Below, piece after piece: positions 14,585 to 27,768 of a stretch of DNA of 31,103 nucleotides; position 1 is the stretch's first letter; each line of letters begins with the position of its first letter. Below the pieces are notes generated by a model that worked only from the letters and a program-made list of their open reading frames with translations, was not told the origin of the DNA and made no database searches. A program made the translations under genes and the position numbers. This DNA is from Elusimicrobiota bacterium (GTDB taxonomy: Bacteria; Elusimicrobiota; Elusimicrobia; Elusimicrobiales; UBA9959), in assembly GCA_027340875.1 (NCBI GenBank), contig DAIENX010000112.1, forward strand, positions 1 through 31,103, written 5' to 3'.

Positions 14585-15433
14585 ATGAAGCAGTTCGACG
14601 CGGTCATAAAGGCGGCGCTGAGGGAAGATGTCGGTACGGGTGACGTCACCACCCGTTTTTTTGTGCCGCTCGGGACCAGGTTCAAGGGCAGGATATTCGC
14701 CAAGGACAGCGGCGTGGTCAGCGGCCTGGAAGTAGCGAAGCGCGTCTTCCAGCTCGCCGCCAAAGGCTCCAAAGTAAAGCTGGTCAGGAAGGACGGCGCC
14801 CGTGTAAAGAAGGGCGACTCCCTGATGCTGGTAGAAGGCCCCGCTTCCATACTCACCGCCGAGCGCACCGCGCTCAACTTCATGCAGCATATGAGCGGCG
14901 TGGCCACGAAGGCCGCGCAGTTCTCCGCCGTTATCAGACATCCCCGCACCAAGATCTACGACACCCGCAAGACCCTGCCGGGGCTTCGCGCGATAGAGAA
15001 GTACGCCGTGCTCTGCGGCGGCGGCCGCAACCACCGCCTGGGCCTCTACGACATGGCCATGATCAAGGACAACCACGTCGCCTTCGCCGGCAACGACCCC
15101 GCCGTCCTGGGCGGCCGCATAAAGGCCATGCGCCGCGCCAATCCTCGCGTCAGGATAGAGATAGAGGCGGATACGCTGGCCCAGGTGAAGGCCTTCCTGC
15201 CGCTAGGAGCCGACGTGATAATGCTGGACAATATGCCTTACGGCGAGATGAAGAAGGCCATCGCCTTCATCCGCTCCCGCAAGGGTAAAGTGCCGGAAAT
15301 AGAGATCTCGGGCGGAGTGGACCTGAAGATGGCCGCCCGCTATTCGAAGCTGGGGGCCGACCGTATCTCGGTAGGCTCCATCACCAGCGGCGCCAGGCCG
15401 CTGGATATCTCTTTCGAGGTGAAAACGAAATGA
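14585..15433 (+). CDS. nadC: Nicotinate-nucleotide pyrophosphorylase (quinolinate phosphoribosyltransferase)
   Basis: EDVGTGDVTT, ERTALNF, DTRKTLPG, NHRLGL, IKDNH, IMLDN and ISGG motifs. Confidence 0.96.
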   Translation: MKQFDAVIKAALREDVGTGDVTTRFFVPLGTRFKGRIFAKDSGVVSGLEVAKRVFQLAAKGSKVKLVRKDGARVKKGDSLMLVEGPASILTAERTALNFMQHMSGVATKAAQFSAVIRHPRTKIYDTRKTLPGLRAIEKYAVLCGGGRNHRLGLYDMAMIKDNHVAFAGNDPAVLGGRIKAMRRANPRVRIEIEADTLAQVKAFLPLGADVIMLDNMPYGEMKKAIAFIRSRKGKVPEIEISGGVDLKMAARYSKLGADRISVGSITSGARPLDISFEVKTK

Positions 15434-16035
15434 AAACCTGCAAATGCGGTCTCAGCCTGGACGGTCTGCCGGGCATCAGCAAGATAGTCTGTCTGGAGGA
15501 GGTGGAGTCCACCCAGGCCGTGGCCCGCGAGCTGGCCGAGGAAGGCAGCGCCGAGAGGACCGTAGTGCTGGCCGAATGCCAGACCGCCGGCAAGGGCCAG
15601 CCCGGCAAGGACTGGGAGGCGGCCGAGGGCGGCATCTACCTGACGCTGCTCCTGAAGCCCGAATCCGACCTGAAGTTCCTGCCGGACCTCGGCGTGCTGG
15701 CCGGCAAGGTGGTCGGCGAGACCCTTACCGGGCTTTACGGCATCAAAACCCGCATCAAGAAGCCCAACGACGTCTACGCCTGGCACCCGCGCCGCCGCAA
15801 GTGGCTGAAGATAGCCGGCATACTCACGGAGTCCTCCTCCAGCGGCGGCGAGACCAGCTGGCTGCTGCTGGGGATGGGCGTCAACCTGAACAATACCCTG
15901 AAGCTCGACACCGCCGTCAGCGTGAAGGCCCTCCAGGGCGCCGACGTCAAGCGCGAGGATTTCCTCGGGAAGTTCTTCGAACTGTTCTGGGTGCGGTATT
16001 CCGAGTGGGAATACTCCAGCCGGGCGCGCTCGTGA
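15430..16035 (+). CDS. birA: Biotin--protein ligase-like protein (catalytic domain only)
   Basis: STQ, QTAGKG...W, PNDV, KIAGILTE and GMGVNL motifs; ATGA overlap with nadC. Confidence 0.78.
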   Translation: MKTCKCGLSLDGLPGISKIVCLEEVESTQAVARELAEEGSAERTVVLAECQTAGKGQPGKDWEAAEGGIYLTLLLKPESDLKFLPDLGVLAGKVVGETLTGLYGIKTRIKKPNDVYAWHPRRRKWLKIAGILTESSSSGGETSWLLLGMGVNLNNTLKLDTAVSVKALQGADVKREDFLGKFFELFWVRYSEWEYSSRARS

Positions 16036-16859
16036 ATCCTTCCCGGCTGAAGGAGATAGCCCTCTCAGCCGGGGCCTCCGCGGCCGGTATAGCGCCGGCC
16101 GCTTTCCTTGCTGAAATAACCCGCTTTTCCGGCGCCCTGGAGGGCCGACCGCGCGGACTGGCCTACCTGGACCGCGACCTCTCCCGCCGCGAAAATATAA
16201 GGAACTGGTATGCGGAAGCGCGCTGCGCGCTGATGTGCGCATTCCGCTACTGGACGCCGGGTATGGACTATTCTTCGGAGCTGGCGAAGGCCGGCGAGCC
16301 GATGTCCTACCTGAGGAATTCCGGCCGTAAGCTTTACCAGCCCGTCCTGCTGGCGAGGGCCGGGGCGAAGCTGTCGCGCTATGTGCTCTGCAGGGACTAC
16401 CATATAGCCGTCAAGGAGAAGCTGGCCGCTATACTGGAGGCGATAAGGAAGGAAGCTCCCGCGGCTGACGGGAAACTTTTCTGCGACAGCTCGCCGGTGC
16501 TCGAGAAGGAGCTCGGCCGGCTGGCGGGGCTGGGCTTCAGGGGGAAGAACACGCTGCTGATCTCCCCGGGGCAGGGCAGCTATTTCTTCCTGGGCGGGAT
16601 AGCGCTGAACTTCGAAGCGGAGGCGGACGCCCCGTGCGCCGGCTCCTGCGGCTCCTGCGACGCCTGCGAGCGGGCCTGCCCGACCGGCGCTCTCAAAGGC
16701 GGGACGCTGGACGCCTCGCGCTGCATCTCGTACTGGACCACGCAGGCCAAGGAAAATATCCCTCCCGAGATAGATGCCCTAAACCCCGGCTGGGCCTACG
16801 GCTGCGACATCTGTCAGGAAGCATGCCCGTACAACGCGAAAAGTAGCAACTATCGGTAG
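16032..16859 (+). CDS. queG: Epoxyqueuosine reductase
   Basis: GTG 16032 overlaps the birA stop (GTGA); SRY...DYH, CDSSPVLEK, GKNTLLI, CGSCDACERACPTGAL, CISYWT and YGCDICQEACPYN motifs. Confidence 0.92.
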   Translation: MNPSRLKEIALSAGASAAGIAPAAFLAEITRFSGALEGRPRGLAYLDRDLSRRENIRNWYAEARCALMCAFRYWTPGMDYSSELAKAGEPMSYLRNSGRKLYQPVLLARAGAKLSRYVLCRDYHIAVKEKLAAILEAIRKEAPAADGKLFCDSSPVLEKELGRLAGLGFRGKNTLLISPGQGSYFFLGGIALNFEAEADAPCAGSCGSCDACERACPTGALKGGTLDASRCISYWTTQAKENIPPEIDALNPGWAYGCDICQEACPYNAKSSNYR

Positions 16860-20578: not shown

Positions 20579-22411
20579 ATGAGGAACCACATCCTTTCAT
20601 TATTCCTTCTTTTCGCGCTGCCGGGGGCGGTTTTGGCGGGGGAAGCCAAGATACTCTCTCTTAGCGGCGCCGTGGAGGCCCGCCTGTCCCGCGAGGGGCA
20701 GTGGGTTTCCGCTACCGCGGACATGGAGATACCAGAGGGGGGCGGTCTCCGCACCAAGGCCGGGGGCGAAGCCGTGGTACTGATGCCCAATAAGACCAAG
20801 GTCTGGCTGAAGGAAGCCACCGGCCTAGAGATAGAGCAACGGCAGACGCTGGCCTCCAGGCTGGCCCTTATATTCGGGAAGGTAAAACTGCGCGTGCCGC
20901 ACCTGATGCGCAAGGAGAAGTTCGAGGTGCGCACCCCGGCCGCGGTCTGCGCCGTGCGCGGCACCGAGTTCACTATGGGCACCACCGAGGACGGCAAGAT
21001 GGACCTGCAGGTGCTCTTCGGAGAGGTAAAGCTGAAGTTCACCGTGCCGCCCGCCAAAGGCCCGTCAGAGTTCAGCATACCGCAGGGCCAGGGTCTGGCC
21101 AGCGCCGAAGAAGGCAAGGCCAACAGACCCGTGCTGCTGACCGCCAAGCAGGAGCGCGCCGCGCTCGAGGACTGGAGCCCCGGCCTGAAGCCCTCCGAGA
21201 GGGAGGCCGGCCTGATCCAGAAGGAGAACGACAGGGCACAGGTGCAGAGCTTCGCCAAGGCCACCAACAACGCCGAGAGCGCGGTGAAGAGCTTCACCAA
21301 CGTGGTCAAAGAGTCCGACCTCGAGGCCGGCCGCACGCTGACCGATGTGCACGGCAACCTGGTGCGCGTGGACCAGCGCATGGTGCGCCCCGACGCCAGC
21401 ACCATACAGTTCATGAACCTGGTGAAGAGACCCACCTATAACGCCGCGGTTACCTCCGCGCACGGCTTCGACTATAACGGCGGGGCGGTGTCCAACAGGC
21501 TGGACATGGCGCAGATGACGATGGGCTTCAACAAGGACCTTCCTCAGCGCATAGAGGAGTGGCCTTCCTTCTTCAACGGCAACAGCGTCAACCCTACCTA
21601 CGCCTCCTTCGTCCTGGCGAACAGGACCAACGAGGCAGCCGACGGCATCTTCTTCGTGGCCGAGGGCTATCGCTACGACGCTATCCGTGACGAGCTGGTG
21701 GACAACCTCAGCGTGTTCGCCCCCAACAGGACATTCCTGGCCACTGACCCGAACGACAAGCATACCATGATCACCGGCGTGCTGAAGGACGGCGGCGCTC
21801 TCGGCAGCGGCCTCACCGCGCAGGACATGTTCAACGCCGTCTCCCGGCTGCAGATAAAGGACCCCACAATCGCCGGCGGCGCCAATACTTCCGCCGGCAA
21901 CCTGGAGTACCTGAACCCTGTGACCCACGCCTACGTGGCCATGGACAACGCCGGCACCAGCGCCACCAACGTGGACTGGGGCATGCGGCTGACCCAGACC
22001 GTCAACAGCGGCAAAGGCTATACCTTCGACTCGGGCTCCGGCGGGCCGCTGGCCCAGTTCCAGGCCGACCCGTATTACATCGGCAACAACCCGTCCAACT
22101 TCATGATGTGGTACGCCCGAGAGAACTACGTGATAGGCAACGGCGGCGGCCTCAAGACCGCGAACGATATAACCAACTCCTCGCAGGACCCCTTCACGCT
22201 GCTCAAGAGCCTGGCGGCCGAGACCGTGGTCTATGTGAAGCAGTCCAACACCGCGCTCGCTTCGGCTCTGACGGATAACACGGCAGCCAAGAGCGCCGTG
22301 AGCGGCCTTGACCATCTGAGCAGCCGGAACATAGACGTGGTCTTCATACCCGACCTGATGGTCGCCGCGGTGCAGCGCATGCTGCCCGCCGTCACGAATC
22401 TGGGGAAATGA
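20579..22411 (+). CDS. Secreted FecR-domain protein with a long uncharacterised C-terminal region
   Basis: Signal peptide MRNHILSLFLLFALPGAVLA; FecR motif FEVRTPAAVCAVRGTEF...VLFGEV; N/G/T/S-rich C-terminal half. Confidence 0.82.
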   Translation: MRNHILSLFLLFALPGAVLAGEAKILSLSGAVEARLSREGQWVSATADMEIPEGGGLRTKAGGEAVVLMPNKTKVWLKEATGLEIEQRQTLASRLALIFGKVKLRVPHLMRKEKFEVRTPAAVCAVRGTEFTMGTTEDGKMDLQVLFGEVKLKFTVPPAKGPSEFSIPQGQGLASAEEGKANRPVLLTAKQERAALEDWSPGLKPSEREAGLIQKENDRAQVQSFAKATNNAESAVKSFTNVVKESDLEAGRTLTDVHGNLVRVDQRMVRPDASTIQFMNLVKRPTYNAAVTSAHGFDYNGGAVSNRLDMAQMTMGFNKDLPQRIEEWPSFFNGNSVNPTYASFVLANRTNEAADGIFFVAEGYRYDAIRDELVDNLSVFAPNRTFLATDPNDKHTMITGVLKDGGALGSGLTAQDMFNAVSRLQIKDPTIAGGANTSAGNLEYLNPVTHAYVAMDNAGTSATNVDWGMRLTQTVNSGKGYTFDSGSGGPLAQFQADPYYIGNNPSNFMMWYARENYVIGNGGGLKTANDITNSSQDPFTLLKSLAAETVVYVKQSNTALASALTDNTAAKSAVSGLDHLSSRNIDVVFIPDLMVAAVQRMLPAVTNLGK

Positions 22412-22424
22412 TAGGGGAGAATTG

Positions 22425-23177
22425 ATGAAGAGAACCATACTGATCCTCCTGGGGCTTTTTCTCATAAAGAGCTCCGCCTTCGCCGCCATAGACTGGGAGT
22501 CGAAGGGAATGCAGATAGCCGGCGAAATACTCGCCAACCCCGCGGGGTTCTTCTACGACTTCCAGCAGGACCTGGAAGGGACCACCCCGCTGCCGCCTGG
22601 AAAGAGCTTCGGCATACAGACGGGCCTGTTCCCGACCACGATACCGATGACCTACACCAACGTGTCCGCCAAGCTGCGCCTGCACCCCGAGGGCCGCATA
22701 GCCCCGGGCGTGCCGCAGCTGGACCTGATAGGCGGCTACTGGGACATGCTGGCGGCCAAGCTGGCCACCAAGAATTCCGACACCATCGATGACGCGAAGT
22801 TCGGCGGCTACTACGCGGGCGGCATACTGAGCACCTCGGTGAGCCCGCGCGTGCGCACCTTCTGGGGCTACAAGCGCAGCGTGCTCAGCGCGAAGGCCAA
22901 GTTCCTTCCCAACAGCCGGGGCAAGTATCCGGAACTGCTGGGTACCCCGGTCAAGGACTTCGACACCGGCTTCAAGGACGACTTCTTCATAGCCGGCATC
23001 GAGACCCCCAAGGGGATAGGTAAGCTCTGGAGCATACAGCTCAACTACGGCATCAAGACCAAGATCTTCTCCAGCAAGGTCAGCTGGTACGGCAAGCTGT
23101 TCGAGCTGGGCTTGAACATCTACCCGGAGGGCGTGCTGGTGTTCCACCCCGTCTGGAACTTCCACCTTAACTTTTAA
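22425..23177 (+). CDS. Hypothetical exported protein, probable outer-membrane beta-barrel
   Basis: Signal peptide ending AFA; amphipathic strands; C-terminal WNFHLNF; GGAG RBS. Confidence 0.65.
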   Translation: MKRTILILLGLFLIKSSAFAAIDWESKGMQIAGEILANPAGFFYDFQQDLEGTTPLPPGKSFGIQTGLFPTTIPMTYTNVSAKLRLHPEGRIAPGVPQLDLIGGYWDMLAAKLATKNSDTIDDAKFGGYYAGGILSTSVSPRVRTFWGYKRSVLSAKAKFLPNSRGKYPELLGTPVKDFDTGFKDDFFIAGIETPKGIGKLWSIQLNYGIKTKIFSSKVSWYGKLFELGLNIYPEGVLVFHPVWNFHLNF

Positions 23178-23186
23178 GGACCGAAA

Positions 23187-24389
23187 ATGAAAAAGACGAT
23201 ATTAAGCGCATTCATAGCGGCGGCGATGGCCGGCAGCGCCTGCGCCACCGTGGCCGAGGATTCCAAGATCTTCACGCCGTACTTCGACATGACGCTTTCC
23301 GAGGCGGCTTTCCTGCCTTCGGAGGGCAACATCTTCAGCGGCGGCAACATCAATACCCAGGTCGGCCTGCTGTCGAAGATCACGCGGAAGGACCACCTGT
23401 TCGGCCTGTACACGTTCAACTACGCCGGCCAGGGCTTCGCGCCGCAGGACTCCAAGCAGTTCACGGACCGCTCGATGTCGCACGGCTTCAACTTCGAGTA
23501 CCGCAGGAGCCTGACCGACAGCCTCAGGGTGCGGCCCGGCATAGCCTTCAGCAAGGAATACCGCCGCACCGGCGCCAACGAGGCGTGGGACAACGGCCTC
23601 TACAACATGAACTCCTCGGGCGGCCAGCTGGCGCTGGACTACTCCTTCGATATGGAGAGGAACGGCTACGTCACGATGCAGTACCTGTTCAGGAACGTCA
23701 AATTCCCCAACTACACGGACCTGCTGCGCGAGTTCCAGAACGCCGGTAACACCGCCGAGACCTCGGGCGGACTGCAGGACCAGACTATGGGCCAGGTCAG
23801 CCTGCGCCCCAACTGGAACAAGTTCTTCGGCGGCGTGACCTACACGGTCCAGAACTACAAGAACCAGAAGGTCGTGGCCGATACAGGCGTGTACGGCGAT
23901 ACCAAGCAGAAGGACACCGACACCGCGTTCGACTTCGGCTTCCACCACAGCCTGTGGATACTGGAAATGTACCCGATGGTGTCCTACACGATGCACAAGT
24001 CCAACCAGAACTTCATGAAATATAAGTTCCTGGGCGACACGGCCCCCGAATTCGGCAAGGACTACTACAGCTTCAAGGAGTTCGCCCTCAGCGTGCCGCT
24101 GGACCTGAACATCACCAGCAAGTGGGCCATCGGCGGCGCCTTCAACATACAGCGCCGCGCCTACGACAGCCGCTACGCCCGCAACGAGACCAACGACTTC
24201 ACCACGGCGAAGCAGGTGAACACGATGACCACGCTGACCGGCTCCATCCGCAAGCGTATCAACGAGGTGGCTATGGTCAGGCTGTTCGGCTCCGTTATAG
24301 TGGCGAGCTCGAACAACAAGTTCGAGAAGTACATGCCGTACAACTATACCGGCAACAGCTTCGGCATAGCTTACAACCTGTCGTACTGA
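23187..24389 (+). CDS. Hypothetical outer-membrane beta-barrel protein
   Basis: Signal peptide; many Tyr/Phe-rich alternating strands; C-terminal beta-signal-like FGIAYNLSY; AAGGA RBS. Confidence 0.75.
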   Translation: MKKTILSAFIAAAMAGSACATVAEDSKIFTPYFDMTLSEAAFLPSEGNIFSGGNINTQVGLLSKITRKDHLFGLYTFNYAGQGFAPQDSKQFTDRSMSHGFNFEYRRSLTDSLRVRPGIAFSKEYRRTGANEAWDNGLYNMNSSGGQLALDYSFDMERNGYVTMQYLFRNVKFPNYTDLLREFQNAGNTAETSGGLQDQTMGQVSLRPNWNKFFGGVTYTVQNYKNQKVVADTGVYGDTKQKDTDTAFDFGFHHSLWILEMYPMVSYTMHKSNQNFMKYKFLGDTAPEFGKDYYSFKEFALSVPLDLNITSKWAIGGAFNIQRRAYDSRYARNETNDFTTAKQVNTMTTLTGSIRKRINEVAMVRLFGSVIVASSNNKFEKYMPYNYTGNSFGIAYNLSY

Positions 24390-24505
24390 GCGGGGCCGAG
24401 GCGCAGGCGGGGCCCGGGATACCCCGGGCCCCGGCCCTTTAAAGGGACCGGCGTGCTCCGATTTAATATAATGTGAGGGGGCAGGGAAACCGCGCTCCGG
24501 GAATA

Positions 24506-25870
24506 ATGCGACTCTTAAGAATAGGAACGCTGCTGCTGATGGCCGCGCCCGCCTGCGCGGGAGGCCCGGGCACCACCGCGGCCAATTTCCTGAAGATACC
24601 GGTGGGCGCCAGAGAGACGGCGCTCGGAGGGGCCTTCACGGCCGTGGCGGAGGGCCCGGGCGCGGTCTTCTACAACCCGGCCGGACTCTCGCAGCTCGAC
24701 GTGATGGAGCTCGGTTACTCCTATAACAACTATTTCTCCGGAATTTCCCAGCACACGGCCTCCGCGGCGCTGCCGCGCGGCAGCGGCGCCTGGGGGCTGG
24801 GGCTGAACTATTTCCAGGTGGGGGCCTTCGATTCCTACGACGCGGCGGACAACAGGACCGGCAGCGTGTCCGCTTACGGCGCCGAGGTGGTCCTGGGCTA
24901 CGGCGGCGCGCTGCGCACCGGCCTGGCCGCCGCTCCCTCGCTGCGCTACGGCGCGGCCGCCAAGTACTTGCTGGAGAGCCTCGACGACAAGAGCGCCGAC
25001 GGCGCCGCGCTGGACGCCGGCGTGCTGCTGCAGGCCGGCCTGCCGGGGCTCGGTTTCGGAGCGGCGGTGCAGAACGCCGCGGCCAGCCGGCTCGACTTCT
25101 ACGGCTCCGGCGCCAGGCCGGCCCGGACGTTCAAGACCGGCCTTTCCTACCGCGCCGGCGGCAAGCCGGTGTCGGGGCTGCTCACGGCCGAGCTGGCCTT
25201 CCCGGAGGACGGGAAACAGTACTTTTCCGGCGGCGTCGAGGGCAGGCTTTACGGCGCCGTCTACCTGAGGGCCGGCTACACCGCCTACGGCGACGTCTCC
25301 GGCGGGCTCACCTTCGGGGCCGGCATAGACATGCCGGCGCGCCTGGGCCGCGGAGTGCGCCTCGACTATTCCTTCGGCTCCACCTACGACCTCGGCAATA
25401 TACACCGGTTCGGCCTGACCTACCGCTTTGACAAGCTGCCCGGCGGGGCGCTTACCGAGGCCCTTGCCAGCGAGCCGGTCCCGAAGGACCCGGCGGCCGT
25501 GCCTCCTTCCAAGCTGGACGACCTTTACGGCTACGACCTGGACAAGTCCATAGCCGCAGCAGAGGCCCTGGCTGCCGACTGTACACCCAAAATACTGCAG
25601 CATTTCTCGTCGCTACTTAACTCGGGCCGCGCCGAATGGAAGAAGTCCGCCCTGCGCGGCCTGGCGGTATGCGGCGCCCCTGGGGCGGCGGACCTGCTCA
25701 AGACCGGTCTGCGCGACCAGAACCCGGGAGTGCGCGCCCAGGCCGCCGCGGCCCTCGGCGCGAAGGGTGGGGGCGACAGCGTAGCCGTGCTGCAGCAGGA
25801 CCTGAAGGACGAGGAGTCCGACGAGGTTAAGGGGGCCATCCTGGAAGCACTGGGGAAGGCCCAGAGATAA
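24506..25870 (+). CDS. PorV/PorQ (UPF0164)-like beta-barrel with C-terminal HEAT repeats
   Basis: FLKIPVGARETALGGAFTAVA...FYNPAGL N-terminal signature; barrel end LGNIHRFGLTYRF; HEAT-like LRDQNPGVRAQAAAALG and LKDEESDEVKGAILEALG. TATAAT at 24467-24472. Confidence 0.82.
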   Translation: MRLLRIGTLLLMAAPACAGGPGTTAANFLKIPVGARETALGGAFTAVAEGPGAVFYNPAGLSQLDVMELGYSYNNYFSGISQHTASAALPRGSGAWGLGLNYFQVGAFDSYDAADNRTGSVSAYGAEVVLGYGGALRTGLAAAPSLRYGAAAKYLLESLDDKSADGAALDAGVLLQAGLPGLGFGAAVQNAAASRLDFYGSGARPARTFKTGLSYRAGGKPVSGLLTAELAFPEDGKQYFSGGVEGRLYGAVYLRAGYTAYGDVSGGLTFGAGIDMPARLGRGVRLDYSFGSTYDLGNIHRFGLTYRFDKLPGGALTEALASEPVPKDPAAVPPSKLDDLYGYDLDKSIAAAEALAADCTPKILQHFSSLLNSGRAEWKKSALRGLAVCGAPGAADLLKTGLRDQNPGVRAQAAAALGAKGGGDSVAVLQQDLKDEESDEVKGAILEALGKAQR

Positions 25871-25871
25871 T

Positions 25872-26396
25872 ATGAGGATACTGCTCATCTCCCTTTTCGC
25901 GATCGCGGCGAACCCGGCCGGCGCGGCCATGACCGGCGGGGTCTTCAGCGTGCCGCTGGTGTCTCCGCTTTCCGGAGGCGGCTCGTCCTCCGGGGGCGCT
26001 TACTCTGTATCCTCCAGCGTCGGCGCACCCGCATATTCTTCCTCGTCCCCGTCCGGCGGTTCCTTCACCCTTTATTCCGGCGGCGGCTCGGCCTTGCTGG
26101 TCATAACCGATACAGCCAGGGGTGACCTTGGCGCCGCGCACTGCTACCCTGTGCCTTTCAAGAGCGCCCTCGGGCATACGAAGATAACCTTCACCGGCCT
26201 CACCCGCTCGGCGGTAGTGCGTGTCTACACCGTCAGCGGCGAGCTGGTGCGCACGCTGGAGAAGAACGATAACGGCGAGACGCTGGACTGGGACCTGCGG
26301 AACTCGCGCGGCCAGCAGGTGGCCAGCGGGGTCTACGTCTACGTGGTGAAGAGCGGCTCGCAGAAGAACAACGGCAAACTGATGGTCATCTGGTAG
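25872..26396 (+). CDS. Small secreted protein with a T9SS type-A CTD / FlgD-Ig-like C-terminal domain
   Basis: Signal peptide, G/S-rich N-terminal half, then YPVPF...VRVYTVSGELVRTL...WDLRNSRGQQVASGVYVYVV...GKLMVIW. Confidence 0.8.
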   Translation: MRILLISLFAIAANPAGAAMTGGVFSVPLVSPLSGGGSSSGGAYSVSSSVGAPAYSSSSPSGGSFTLYSGGGSALLVITDTARGDLGAAHCYPVPFKSALGHTKITFTGLTRSAVVRVYTVSGELVRTLEKNDNGETLDWDLRNSRGQQVASGVYVYVVKSGSQKNNGKLMVIW

Positions 26397-26412
26397 GGAT
26401 AGCGGAGACAAT

Positions 26413-27768
26413 ATGAAGAACAGAGCGTCATACATTAAATTCCTGGCCCTGGCCGCGCTGCTGGCGGCGCCGCAGGCGCGCGCCGGAGCGCCGCTGAAGC
26501 TGAACTTCCAGGGGCGCCTGGACCAGAGCGGCCAGCCCGCCGAGGGCAGCAAGACCTTCGTCTTCAAGATCTACGACGTGATCTCCGGAGGTACGGCCCG
26601 CTGGACCAGCGCGTCGCAGGCCATAGACGTCTCCAACGGCCTTTTCAGCGCGGTGCTCTCCACCGGCACCCCGGCCGATCTTTCCACCGCCACCTTCTCG
26701 GGGGCCCGCTACATAGAGATAGCCGTGGACGGGGTGCCGCTCTCCCCGCGCCAGGAGCTGGTCTCCGCGCCTTACGCGCTGGTGGCGCAGTCCCTGGCTC
26801 CGGACGCGGAGCTGCCGCCGGCCGCCATAACTGACGGTTCGGTCACCGACGTTAAGGTGCTGCTGACCACGGCCGCTATAAGCTCCGGCAAGTTCGGCAA
26901 CGACCGGGTGGCGATAACCACGAACGCCGTCAGCGGCCTCAGCGCCCTGGCAACTGGCGGCTCGGAGATCGACCCGGTCTTCACGGCCGCGCCGGCCTAC
27001 GCTATAAACGCCTCGAGCGTGACCAACTGGAACGCGGCGTACGCCTGGGGCAGCCACGCCGGCCTGTACCTGGCCGCGCCGGCCACGTTCACCTATGTCT
27101 CCGCCGAGACCGACCCGGTCTTCACGGCCGCGCCCGCCTACGCGATAAACGCCTCGAGCGTGACCAACTGGAACGCGGCGTACGGCTGGGGAAACCACGC
27201 CGCCGCGGGCTACGCCACTACTACGCAGGTCAATACCGCGCTGGCCTCCTACGCCGCCCTCTCCGCCACGCAGACGTTCACCGGGGTAAATACGTTCTCC
27301 TCCACTGCGGCCTTCACCTCCCAGTCCGGCTCTCAGCCGGGCGTGACCATCTCTTCCGGACTTGTCGTTTCGGCAGGGAGCGTGGGCGTGGGGACCGCTT
27401 CCCCTAACTCCGCGCTTACCGTCAACGGTTCCATGTCGCTGCCGATAAAGACCATAACGATAACGAACTCTCCGTACGCTGTCACGGGAGCGGACAGCAC
27501 CATACTGGTGAACGCAGCGTCCTCCGGTGCCGAGCTGTTCCTGGACCTGCCGGACGCCGCCGGGGTCAAGGGCAGGATCTACACGATGAAGCGGCTGGAC
27601 GATCCCGCGGCGATCGGGGCGTTCCCGGTCACCATACGGCCCTCCGGGGTGCAGACCATAGACGGGCTGGCGACTCTGCAGCTGGTCGCCATGCAGTGGG
27701 TGTCGGTGGTCATCCAGAGCACCGGCTCCAACTGGGTGATCCTGTCCGTCTACGACGTGGCGATCTAG
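26413..27768 (+). CDS. Secreted fibre/adhesin-like protein with internal repeats
   Basis: Signal peptide; LNFQGRL...FKIYD...NGLFSAVL...PRQELVSAPYAL N-domain; two ExDPVF...WNAAYxWGxHA repeats; VGVGTASPNSALTVNGS motif; tail-fibre-like C-terminus (LPDAAGVKGRIYTMKR...QTIDG...SNWVI). Confidence 0.75.
   Translation: MKNRASYIKFLALAALLAAPQARAGAPLKLNFQGRLDQSGQPAEGSKTFVFKIYDVISGGTARWTSASQAIDVSNGLFSAVLSTGTPADLSTATFSGARYIEIAVDGVPLSPRQELVSAPYALVAQSLAPDAELPPAAITDGSVTDVKVLLTTAAISSGKFGNDRVAITTNAVSGLSALATGGSEIDPVFTAAPAYAINASSVTNWNAAYAWGSHAGLYLAAPATFTYVSAETDPVFTAAPAYAINASSVTNWNAAYGWGNHAAAGYATTTQVNTALASYAALSATQTFTGVNTFSSTAAFTSQSGSQPGVTISSGLVVSAGSVGVGTASPNSALTVNGSMSLPIKTITITNSPYAVTGADSTILVNAASSGAELFLDLPDAAGVKGRIYTMKRLDDPAAIGAFPVTIRPSGVQTIDGLATLQLVAMQWVSVVIQSTGSNWVILSVYDVAI
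26965..27201 (+). repeat. Intragenic 96-bp direct repeat, two copies, 141-bp period
   Basis: 26965-27060 versus 27106-27201, 90/96 identical and in frame. Confidence 0.92.

Follow-up and report, generated by a model that had tools for sequence, protein, structure and literature searches.

How could a fibre-like adhesin be held at the cell surface when it carries no sorting signal of its own? This question is raised by three genes in a 31,103-nucleotide (nt) stretch of DNA, here called the window, from an uncultured Elusimicrobiota bacterium (GCA_027340875.1, contig DAIENX010000112.1). They encode an outer-membrane barrel of the PorV/PorQ family, a small secreted protein of 174 amino acids (aa) that ends in a type IX secretion system (T9SS) sorting domain, and a 451-aa fibre protein. 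A sequence-only reading of the window had proposed a dedicated surface-display unit in a host outside the Bacteroidota, with the small protein as an adaptor for the fibre. The relatives of the small protein are indeed named Elusimicrobiota. Within the locus, the adaptor-fibre pair is the novel core; the arrangement is real, conserved and apparently absent from print. It is probable that the genes build a surface fibre in which a segment of the adaptor would clamp the base of the fibre while its sorting tag would dock on the barrel. The domain content, gene order, barrel lineage, mosaic tips and cross-phylum coupling on which this reading is built were observed directly.

A repeat segment shared by proteins with different tails

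As had been claimed, the small protein ends in a C-terminal sorting domain (CTD) of type A. It scores 30.9 against TIGR04183 (cut-off 23), its best whole-family match is the PorZ C-terminal domain (NF052228, E 2.8e-13), and PDB entry 5m11 also matches (E 0.004), while FlgD_ig lies slightly below its cut-off. The remainder had been described only as a glycine- and serine-rich (G/S-rich) segment, and this part of the description falls short. Judged from its sequence relatives, the G/S-rich stretch is a conserved three-repeat domain and not a linker. In the window, the motif (T/S)GGx(F/Y)(S/T) occurs three times in the segment (aa 19-72, 56% G+S), at aa 21, 40 and 61, with a spacing of about 20 residues, and the three-fold GGx-aromatic pattern is retained across 146 aligned segment sequences. 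A profile built on 30 Elusimicrobiota sequences found 79 cluster representatives. Three of these (P0123, P0124 and P0127) were judged by eye to be false matches and excluded from the broader profile; in about 60 of the others, the segment follows a signal peptide and is joined to a different C-terminal tail. Distant segment matches score at least 35 bits, whereas reversed proteins score at most 7 bits, so composition does not explain them. Both the conservation of positions and this reversed control led to the rejection of a plain low-complexity linker. The segment is not covered by any Pfam or NCBIfam model, and ESM Atlas searches gave nothing informative.

The tails joined to the segment include the type IX tag, dockerins and endings of the FYRL, YLP, IFxDGFE and membrane-tail types. 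Dockerin tails were found above cut-off (P0135, GC-type dockerin, 43.5 vs 29; P0177, Dockerin_1, 28.1 vs 22.9), while the FYRL, YLP, IFxDGFE and membrane-tail labels were given by eye. We take the FYRL, YLP and IFxDGFE tails to belong to Verrucomicrobiota, Chloroflexota and xanthomonad-type hosts, and FYRL-type loci do carry Verrucomicrobiota labels in genome records. A broken adaptor gene was also seen, on G061:C7.

Coupling of adaptor and fibre genes across phyla

A scan of genome contigs yielded at least 573 segment relatives. The best 80 of these, chosen by the segment alone, comprise 68 loci labelled as Verrucomicrobiota lineages and 12 labelled otherwise, and they were searched with a fibre N-domain profile built from Elusimicrobiota only. 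A match was found in 56 of the 80 loci, with 55 co-oriented and 45 directly adjacent to the adaptor gene; among well-flanked loci the count is 38 of 49. None of these best 80 loci has a PorV-like gene. In 79 mostly short metagenome loci, 36 have a co-oriented fibre gene, rising to 19 of 23 where at least 4 kb of upstream DNA is present, and neither an opposite-strand fibre gene nor a PorV gene was found in the 79. Pairing in the metagenomes extends over different tails, namely FYRL (17/41), dockerin-like (8/20) and YLP (5/9).

Five whole genomes (26 Mb) were also counted from coordinates. Here, 15 of 20 adaptor genes lie about 6 kb or less from a co-oriented fibre match, and two further adaptor genes adjoin fibres with a split N-domain, giving 17 of 20; with the index loci left out, the figure is 12 of 15. 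The chance expectation is about 1.6% per random 12-kb window. As related genomes are not independent, all these coupling counts should be read as describing a pattern, not as a test statistic. Taken together, the swapped tails, the co-oriented fibre genes and the lack of PorV elsewhere indicate that the conserved unit is the adaptor plus the fibre.

Ten loci (L042, L046, L071, L072, L077, L087, L099, L110, L112 and L116) are labelled Bifidobacteriaceae or Saccharimonadales. Their adaptor matches rank with the Verrucomicrobiota type, and the labels are probably wrong.

Relatives of the locus in Elusimicrobiota

The three genes are co-oriented and closely spaced, as first described, with gaps of 1 nt between barrel and small gene and 16 nt between small gene and fibre. 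A match to the small protein is present in all 36 same-genus genomes, in part of them to the sorting domain only. In 30 loci fetched via the small protein, a count that includes the source genome and close relatives that are not independent, the fibre lies downstream in 29 and a co-oriented barrel upstream in 22. The three-gene arrangement is more than chance. In 17 longer loci, picked for the presence of the barrel, gene order is constant while the flanks vary: a FecR cluster lies upstream in 9 and smc downstream in 7. The barrel-adaptor-fibre order was also found in another family (L230). The adjacency proposed earlier for the adaptor-fibre pair is thus conserved, both among close relatives and across phyla.

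In a phylum-wide draw, the segment was found in 8 of 201 genomes, mainly from the host's family. A fibre gene with the N-domain lies directly downstream in 14 of 16 Elusimicrobiota adaptor loci, and in the other two a fibre lacking the N-domain lies between. The source genome itself encodes six fibres with this N-domain. A gene with segment and tag lies upstream of the fibre on contigs C44, C107 and C111. On C63, a tagged protein is encoded next to the fibre, and its start is a probable relative of the segment (hhalign 54%, E 1.3e-4; 0.07% when reversed).

Some of these paralogous loci have further features. On C111, the intervening gene (G000:C111:38514-39440, minus strand) encodes a 308-aa fibre-like protein without the N-domain, and the same situation is seen in L131. 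The C63 region (G000:C63:43501-60941) comprises a PorV gene, a 2,592-aa fibre and the tagged protein, of 1,537 aa, with its probable distant segment; MotA/MotB-like genes, recognised by eye, come next on the opposite strand.

A PorV/PorQ-family barrel with a HEAT tail

The first gene encodes a PorV-like barrel, as had been suggested, rather than a FadL-type transporter. Residues 23-308 (nt 24572-25429) match NF033709, the PorV/PorQ family, at 110.6 bits (cut-off 90, model positions 1-326), and the protein stays below the equivalog cut-offs of PorV (33/250, NF033710) and PorQ (84/220, NF033711). A FadL/Toluene_X transporter (FadL/TodX, PF03349) was rejected, with a score of 15.4 vs a cut-off of 29.7 and a match to aa 38-72 only. 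What had been overlooked is a C-terminal tail of HEAT repeats at aa 368-450 (nt 25607-25855; HEAT_2, 43 bits vs 27.7), which is likely periplasmic.

About 19 PorV-family genes above cut-off are present in the source genome, many of them directly 3' of a large tagged gene. A quick tree places 16 barrels of the adaptor-fibre loci on a single branch (SH-aLRT 96), separate from 19 further paralogues. The placement of the other-family barrel in this tree is not settled, and row L229 holds a second, unrelated barrel instead of the right one. The barrels of adaptor-fibre loci are thus their own lineage, travelling with the pair.

The claim of a dedicated three-gene unit holds in part: the order is conserved and the barrel has its own lineage. 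However, the barrel is not core to the unit, since paralogous pairs of the source genome (C107 and C111) lack an adjoining barrel and other phyla have other anchors and no PorV. On the gene neighbourhoods (22 of 30 loci), the PorV barrel would be the anchor used in the host's own lineage.

A separate observation on contig C76 concerns a 135-aa protein that consists of hardly anything but a tag-like domain; next comes a PorV-like gene that has a long extension (G000:C76:36039-38426, plus strand). This pair is divergent from an adaptor-like plus fibre pair.

Fibres with a constant base and exchanged ends

The 451-aa protein has the architecture first assigned to it: an xNFQGRL N-domain, repeats, a weakly tail-fibre-like tip and no CTD. 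Its N-domain matches NF053851 (Bdello_MAT_N), the model for mosaic adhesive trimer (MAT) fibres of Bdellovibrio, at E 1.3e-5 over the first half of the model only, with 25 bits against a cut-off of 60, and 40 of 72 related N-domains match this model at E <= 0.01. The stalk holds near-identical 24-aa repeats at aa 187-210 and 234-257, and the tip resembles the T4 gp9/10-like family PF07880 below cut-off (E 3.2e-4). Profile searches found no sorting domain on the fibre, and our own sorting-domain profile found no tag on any of 120 fibre relatives.

An AlphaFold2 model of the N-domain predicts a beta-sandwich (pLDDT 86.5). Foldseek returned nothing at E <= 0.001 in PDB or BFVD, a sequence search of solved structures gave no match for the fibre, and structural comparison (VIA) gave generic Ig-like matches only, with a best Z of 6.8. 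As T9 sorting domains (Z 6.2 and 5.6) fall within this generic range, we do not propose the N-domain as a tag in its own right.

In the 17 barrel-selected loci, fibres span 275-1166 aa from the N-domain and have six end types, including a C1q-like tip; the tip seen in the window is replaced by other ends in 6 of the 17. The fibres of these loci therefore have a mosaic build, with a constant base and exchanged tips. Relatives of the N-domain are named from Patescibacteria, Calditrichota, WOR-3, Chloroflexi and Betaproteobacteria.

Two further points concern the origin and variation of these fibres. A prophage or phage origin was rejected on the housekeeping neighbours of the locus, including uvrB and smc, and on searches of phage and viral collections, which yielded no relative of either the N-domain or the adaptor; a search of plasmids found no relatives of a YLP-type adaptor. 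In four Verrucomicrobiota loci (L051, L069, L234 and L235), the fibre N-domain is interrupted by an inserted domain after a YQGR motif.

Putative type IX-like secretion parts in the host genome

The earlier suggestion to search the genome for secretion parts had a mixed outcome. A 1,784-aa open reading frame (ORF) at G000:C14:47514-52868 (minus strand) has colinear sub-cut-off SprA matches. Such SprA-like ORFs, mostly of about 1,800 aa, were found in 59 of 61 related genomes, none over the cut-off. In the order's small-genome family, an SprA-like match is present in 21 of 22 genomes and the small protein in just 1 of 22.

The other parts were searched for in a genome that is 92% complete. No GldL, GldM or GldN (PorL/M/N) match was found, and control genomes likewise gave none; GldK gave one partial match (44 of 350 bits); the PorU model matched C-terminal tag regions only; and no C25 peptidase was found in a search without a positive control. 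Given the completeness and the lack of a control genome with these families, absence of GldL/M/N, PorU and C25 is not established.

A proposed mode of display and its alternatives

How might these parts work together? The adaptor would leave the cytoplasm via Sec and then pass the SprA-like pore by means of its tag. The sorting domain would stay uncleaved, without a sortase, on the co-encoded PorV/PorQ-family barrel, by analogy with PorZ on PorQ. From its kinship, the 451-aa protein is predicted to form a MAT-like trimer. We infer that the three repeats of the adaptor clamp the conserved bases of three fibre N-domains, with the tip pointing outwards; as the segment has three repeats, there would be one adaptor per trimer. 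The mounted fibre would serve in adhesion. The untagged fibre may cross the outer membrane with the adaptor, and lineages without PorV would have to use another route. The segment gave no fold when modelled alone (pLDDT 45 with 146 sequences), which fits folding on a partner.

Several observations weigh against this picture. The low-confidence model of the segment is also expected of a plain linker, and the segment found in the window is itself divergent within the family, with 21-42% identity outside close relatives. In the reverse direction, the five genomes have 35 fibre N-domain matches, of which only 18 lie about 6 kb or less from an adaptor, and the retrieved DNA surrounding two adaptors contains no fibre. 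Segment and fibre N-domain were not seen fused, either among 231 ORFs for adaptors and 184 for fibres or in a set of 120 fibre proteins. The 80-locus set comes almost entirely from one phylum, with relatives that are not independent, and both the MAT and the SprA matches are sub-cut-off. Within the phylum, the barrel is upstream in only 4 of 16 adaptor loci. In the source genome, the tagged neighbour of the C76 fibre has no detectable relation to the segment (hhalign 1%), and the C9 fibre has no adaptor upstream, where the contig end cuts the locus.

The small protein could instead be a transient folding chaperone or export pilot that takes the fibre to or through the SprA-like pore, after which the fibre is released or held otherwise. 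An untagged fibre needs an exit route, and about half of the fibre genes have no adjoining adaptor, so one adaptor could serve many; moreover, PorV is described as a shuttle in Bacteroidota in the accessible part of PMC12618676. However, a barrel lineage dedicated to the pair suits a stoichiometric anchor, and neither a PorU sortase nor a C25 peptidase that would release cargo was found in the searches above. The tails also bear on this alternative, as dockerins are attachment modules rather than export signals. We consider a chaperone or pilot unlikely. An independent surface protein that self-associates into an oligomer, coat or thin filament, sharing an adhesion role with the fibre and making no contact with it, seems quite unlikely. 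G/S-rich beta-repeat segments can self-assemble, and the missing monomer fold, the two adaptors without a nearby fibre and the lack of fusions would agree with this, but adjacency that persists across four tail types and many tips while the N-domain stays constant is the pattern expected of touching partners.

It is also conceivable that adaptor and fibre are partners and the barrel a mere neighbour, with the sorting domain docking on other PorV paralogues and the HEAT-tailed barrel having another job. The C107 and C111 pairs manage without an adjoining barrel, most PorV genes of the genome come after their cargo gene whereas here the barrel comes first, and one PorV handles all type A cargo in Flavobacterium johnsoniae, according to the accessible part of PMC12618676. 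Against this stand the 1-nt gap between barrel and adaptor genes, the trio that remains intact in the barrel-selected loci as FecR and smc flanks change, and the same order in the other family, and we consider a bystander barrel very unlikely.

Beyond the window, the clamp reading can be widened. On balance, we slightly favour the view that the 55-residue segment is a universal clamp for the bases of MAT-like trimeric fibres, fused in each lineage to that lineage's own attachment signal. These signals would be the type IX tag with the PorV barrel here, dockerin, FYRL or YLP endings elsewhere, and perhaps the tip subunit of the Pam pilus.

Relation to described systems

The closest parallel for the fibre is found in Bdellovibrio bacteriovorus, whose MAT fibres (NF053851) are likewise chromosomal and signal-peptide-bearing, with a constant N-domain and exchanged tips. 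The accessible text of PMC10769870 proposes that the MAT N-domain binds an unidentified surface element, a partner that 'awaits further study', and the passages located in a 2026 review (PMC13689555) name no anchor for MAT fibres. By contrast, a candidate adaptor and barrel are co-encoded here; the fibre reaches 25 of 60 bits and the host is not a known predator. The fibre is a probable relative of the MAT fibres and the barrel belongs to a set of about 19 paralogues, so that the locus represents a single case of something broader.

For the anchor, the parallel is with the Bacteroidota PorQ-PorZ and PorV-CTD systems: the locus has a PorV/PorQ-family barrel and a type A domain closest to that of PorZ, and the host genome has an SprA-like candidate gene. 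PorZ itself has a beta-propeller fold. The cargo here differs in being a segment of 55 residues, in place of a beta-propeller enzyme partner. In addition, HEAT repeats extend the barrel, the genome has about 19 barrel paralogues, the host is an Elusimicrobiota member, and GldL, GldM, GldN and PorU of the Bacteroidota T9SS were not found in the searches above. In the accessible part of PMC10947112, the PorZ sorting domain is uncleaved and a PorQ-PorZ complex is formed. A second parallel is the type B CTD cargo of F. johnsoniae, which uses cognate PorP/SprF shuttles with proposed stoichiometric surface retention (PMC12618676, accessible part). There too, the cargo gene is linked to its own barrel gene, whereas here the tag is of type A, the barrel is of PorV/PorQ type and the adhesin forms a chain of its own that carries no tag.

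The segment family has a single recurrent match among known models, PamT (NF058579). The start of this model (positions 6-95) weakly matches 7 of 40 proteins of the family (best E 1.5e-7), and 19 of 146 bare segments match at E <= 0.05. PamT is the predicted tip subunit of the Pam pilus of the Candidate Phyla Radiation (CPR), and a tail-fibre-like gene is consistently near the pam operon in the accessible part of PMC13278184, which fits this weak match. Unlike in that system, there is no pilin domain here, and neither the 174-aa protein nor the source genome has a PamT match. A search for longer, PamT-like relatives of P0195 found none.

Among the papers listed by literature searches, thin on subscription journals, there was no description of the adaptor or of an Elusimicrobiota type IX-like system, and no paper joining SprA, T9SS and Elusimicrobi*.

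Features and surroundings of the locus

The features of the locus are collected in the table below, in which signal peptides were assigned by eye alone.

Table. Features of the three-gene locus, in window coordinates
Feature	Position	Strand	Details
PorV/PorQ-family outer-membrane barrel with linker and HEAT tail	24506-25870	+	454 aa counted from ATG
Adaptor candidate, secreted, with signal peptide followed by three-repeat segment and type A T9SS-like sorting domain	25872-26396	+	174 aa
Three-repeat G-rich segment; candidate fibre-binding part	25926-26096	+	Motifs at 25932, 25989, 26052
Type A sorting domain (CTD), nearest to the PorZ domain	26124-26393	+	TIGR04183, NF052228, 5m11_A
MAT-like fibre lacking a sorting domain, with signal peptide, conserved N-domain, variable stalk and tip	26413-27768	+	451 aa
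Fibre N-domain (xNFQGRL), predicted Ig-like beta-sandwich	26485-26802	+	Bdello_MAT_N sub-cut-off; AlphaFold2
Two near-identical stalk repeats	26971-27042 and 27112-27183	+	24 aa each
Fibre tip region, weakly T4 gp9/10-like	27403-27765	+	PF07880 under cut-off

A promoter consensus scan called one site, before smc, and none before the barrel. By eye, a GC-rich inverted repeat and, after it, a TATAAT hexamer can be recognised just 5' of the barrel (24409-24472), where the consensus scan made no call.

Further upstream (20579-24389, plus strand), a FecR-domain secreted protein is followed by two unannotated barrel-like proteins of 250 and 400 aa. This trio is retained upstream in 9 of the 17 related loci, and a similar set lies 3' of a PorV gene at G000:C102:8884-14619. 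Elsewhere in the window (15430-16859), a biotin-ligase-like ORF, recognised by eye, overlaps the start of a long frame containing queG, and the listed queG start is therefore probably too far upstream.

Implications

The locus offers a small soluble candidate partner for MAT-type fibres (a 55-residue segment and a 106-residue domain) together with a candidate membrane route. If the clamp reading is true, fibres with exchangeable tips and no anchor of their own could plug into unrelated envelope systems. The pair would then amount to a display system in two parts that has not been described, and it might supply the MAT anchor. If binding holds, it would also account for many gene pairs that now lack annotation, and give the type IX-like system of Elusimicrobiota a concrete job.

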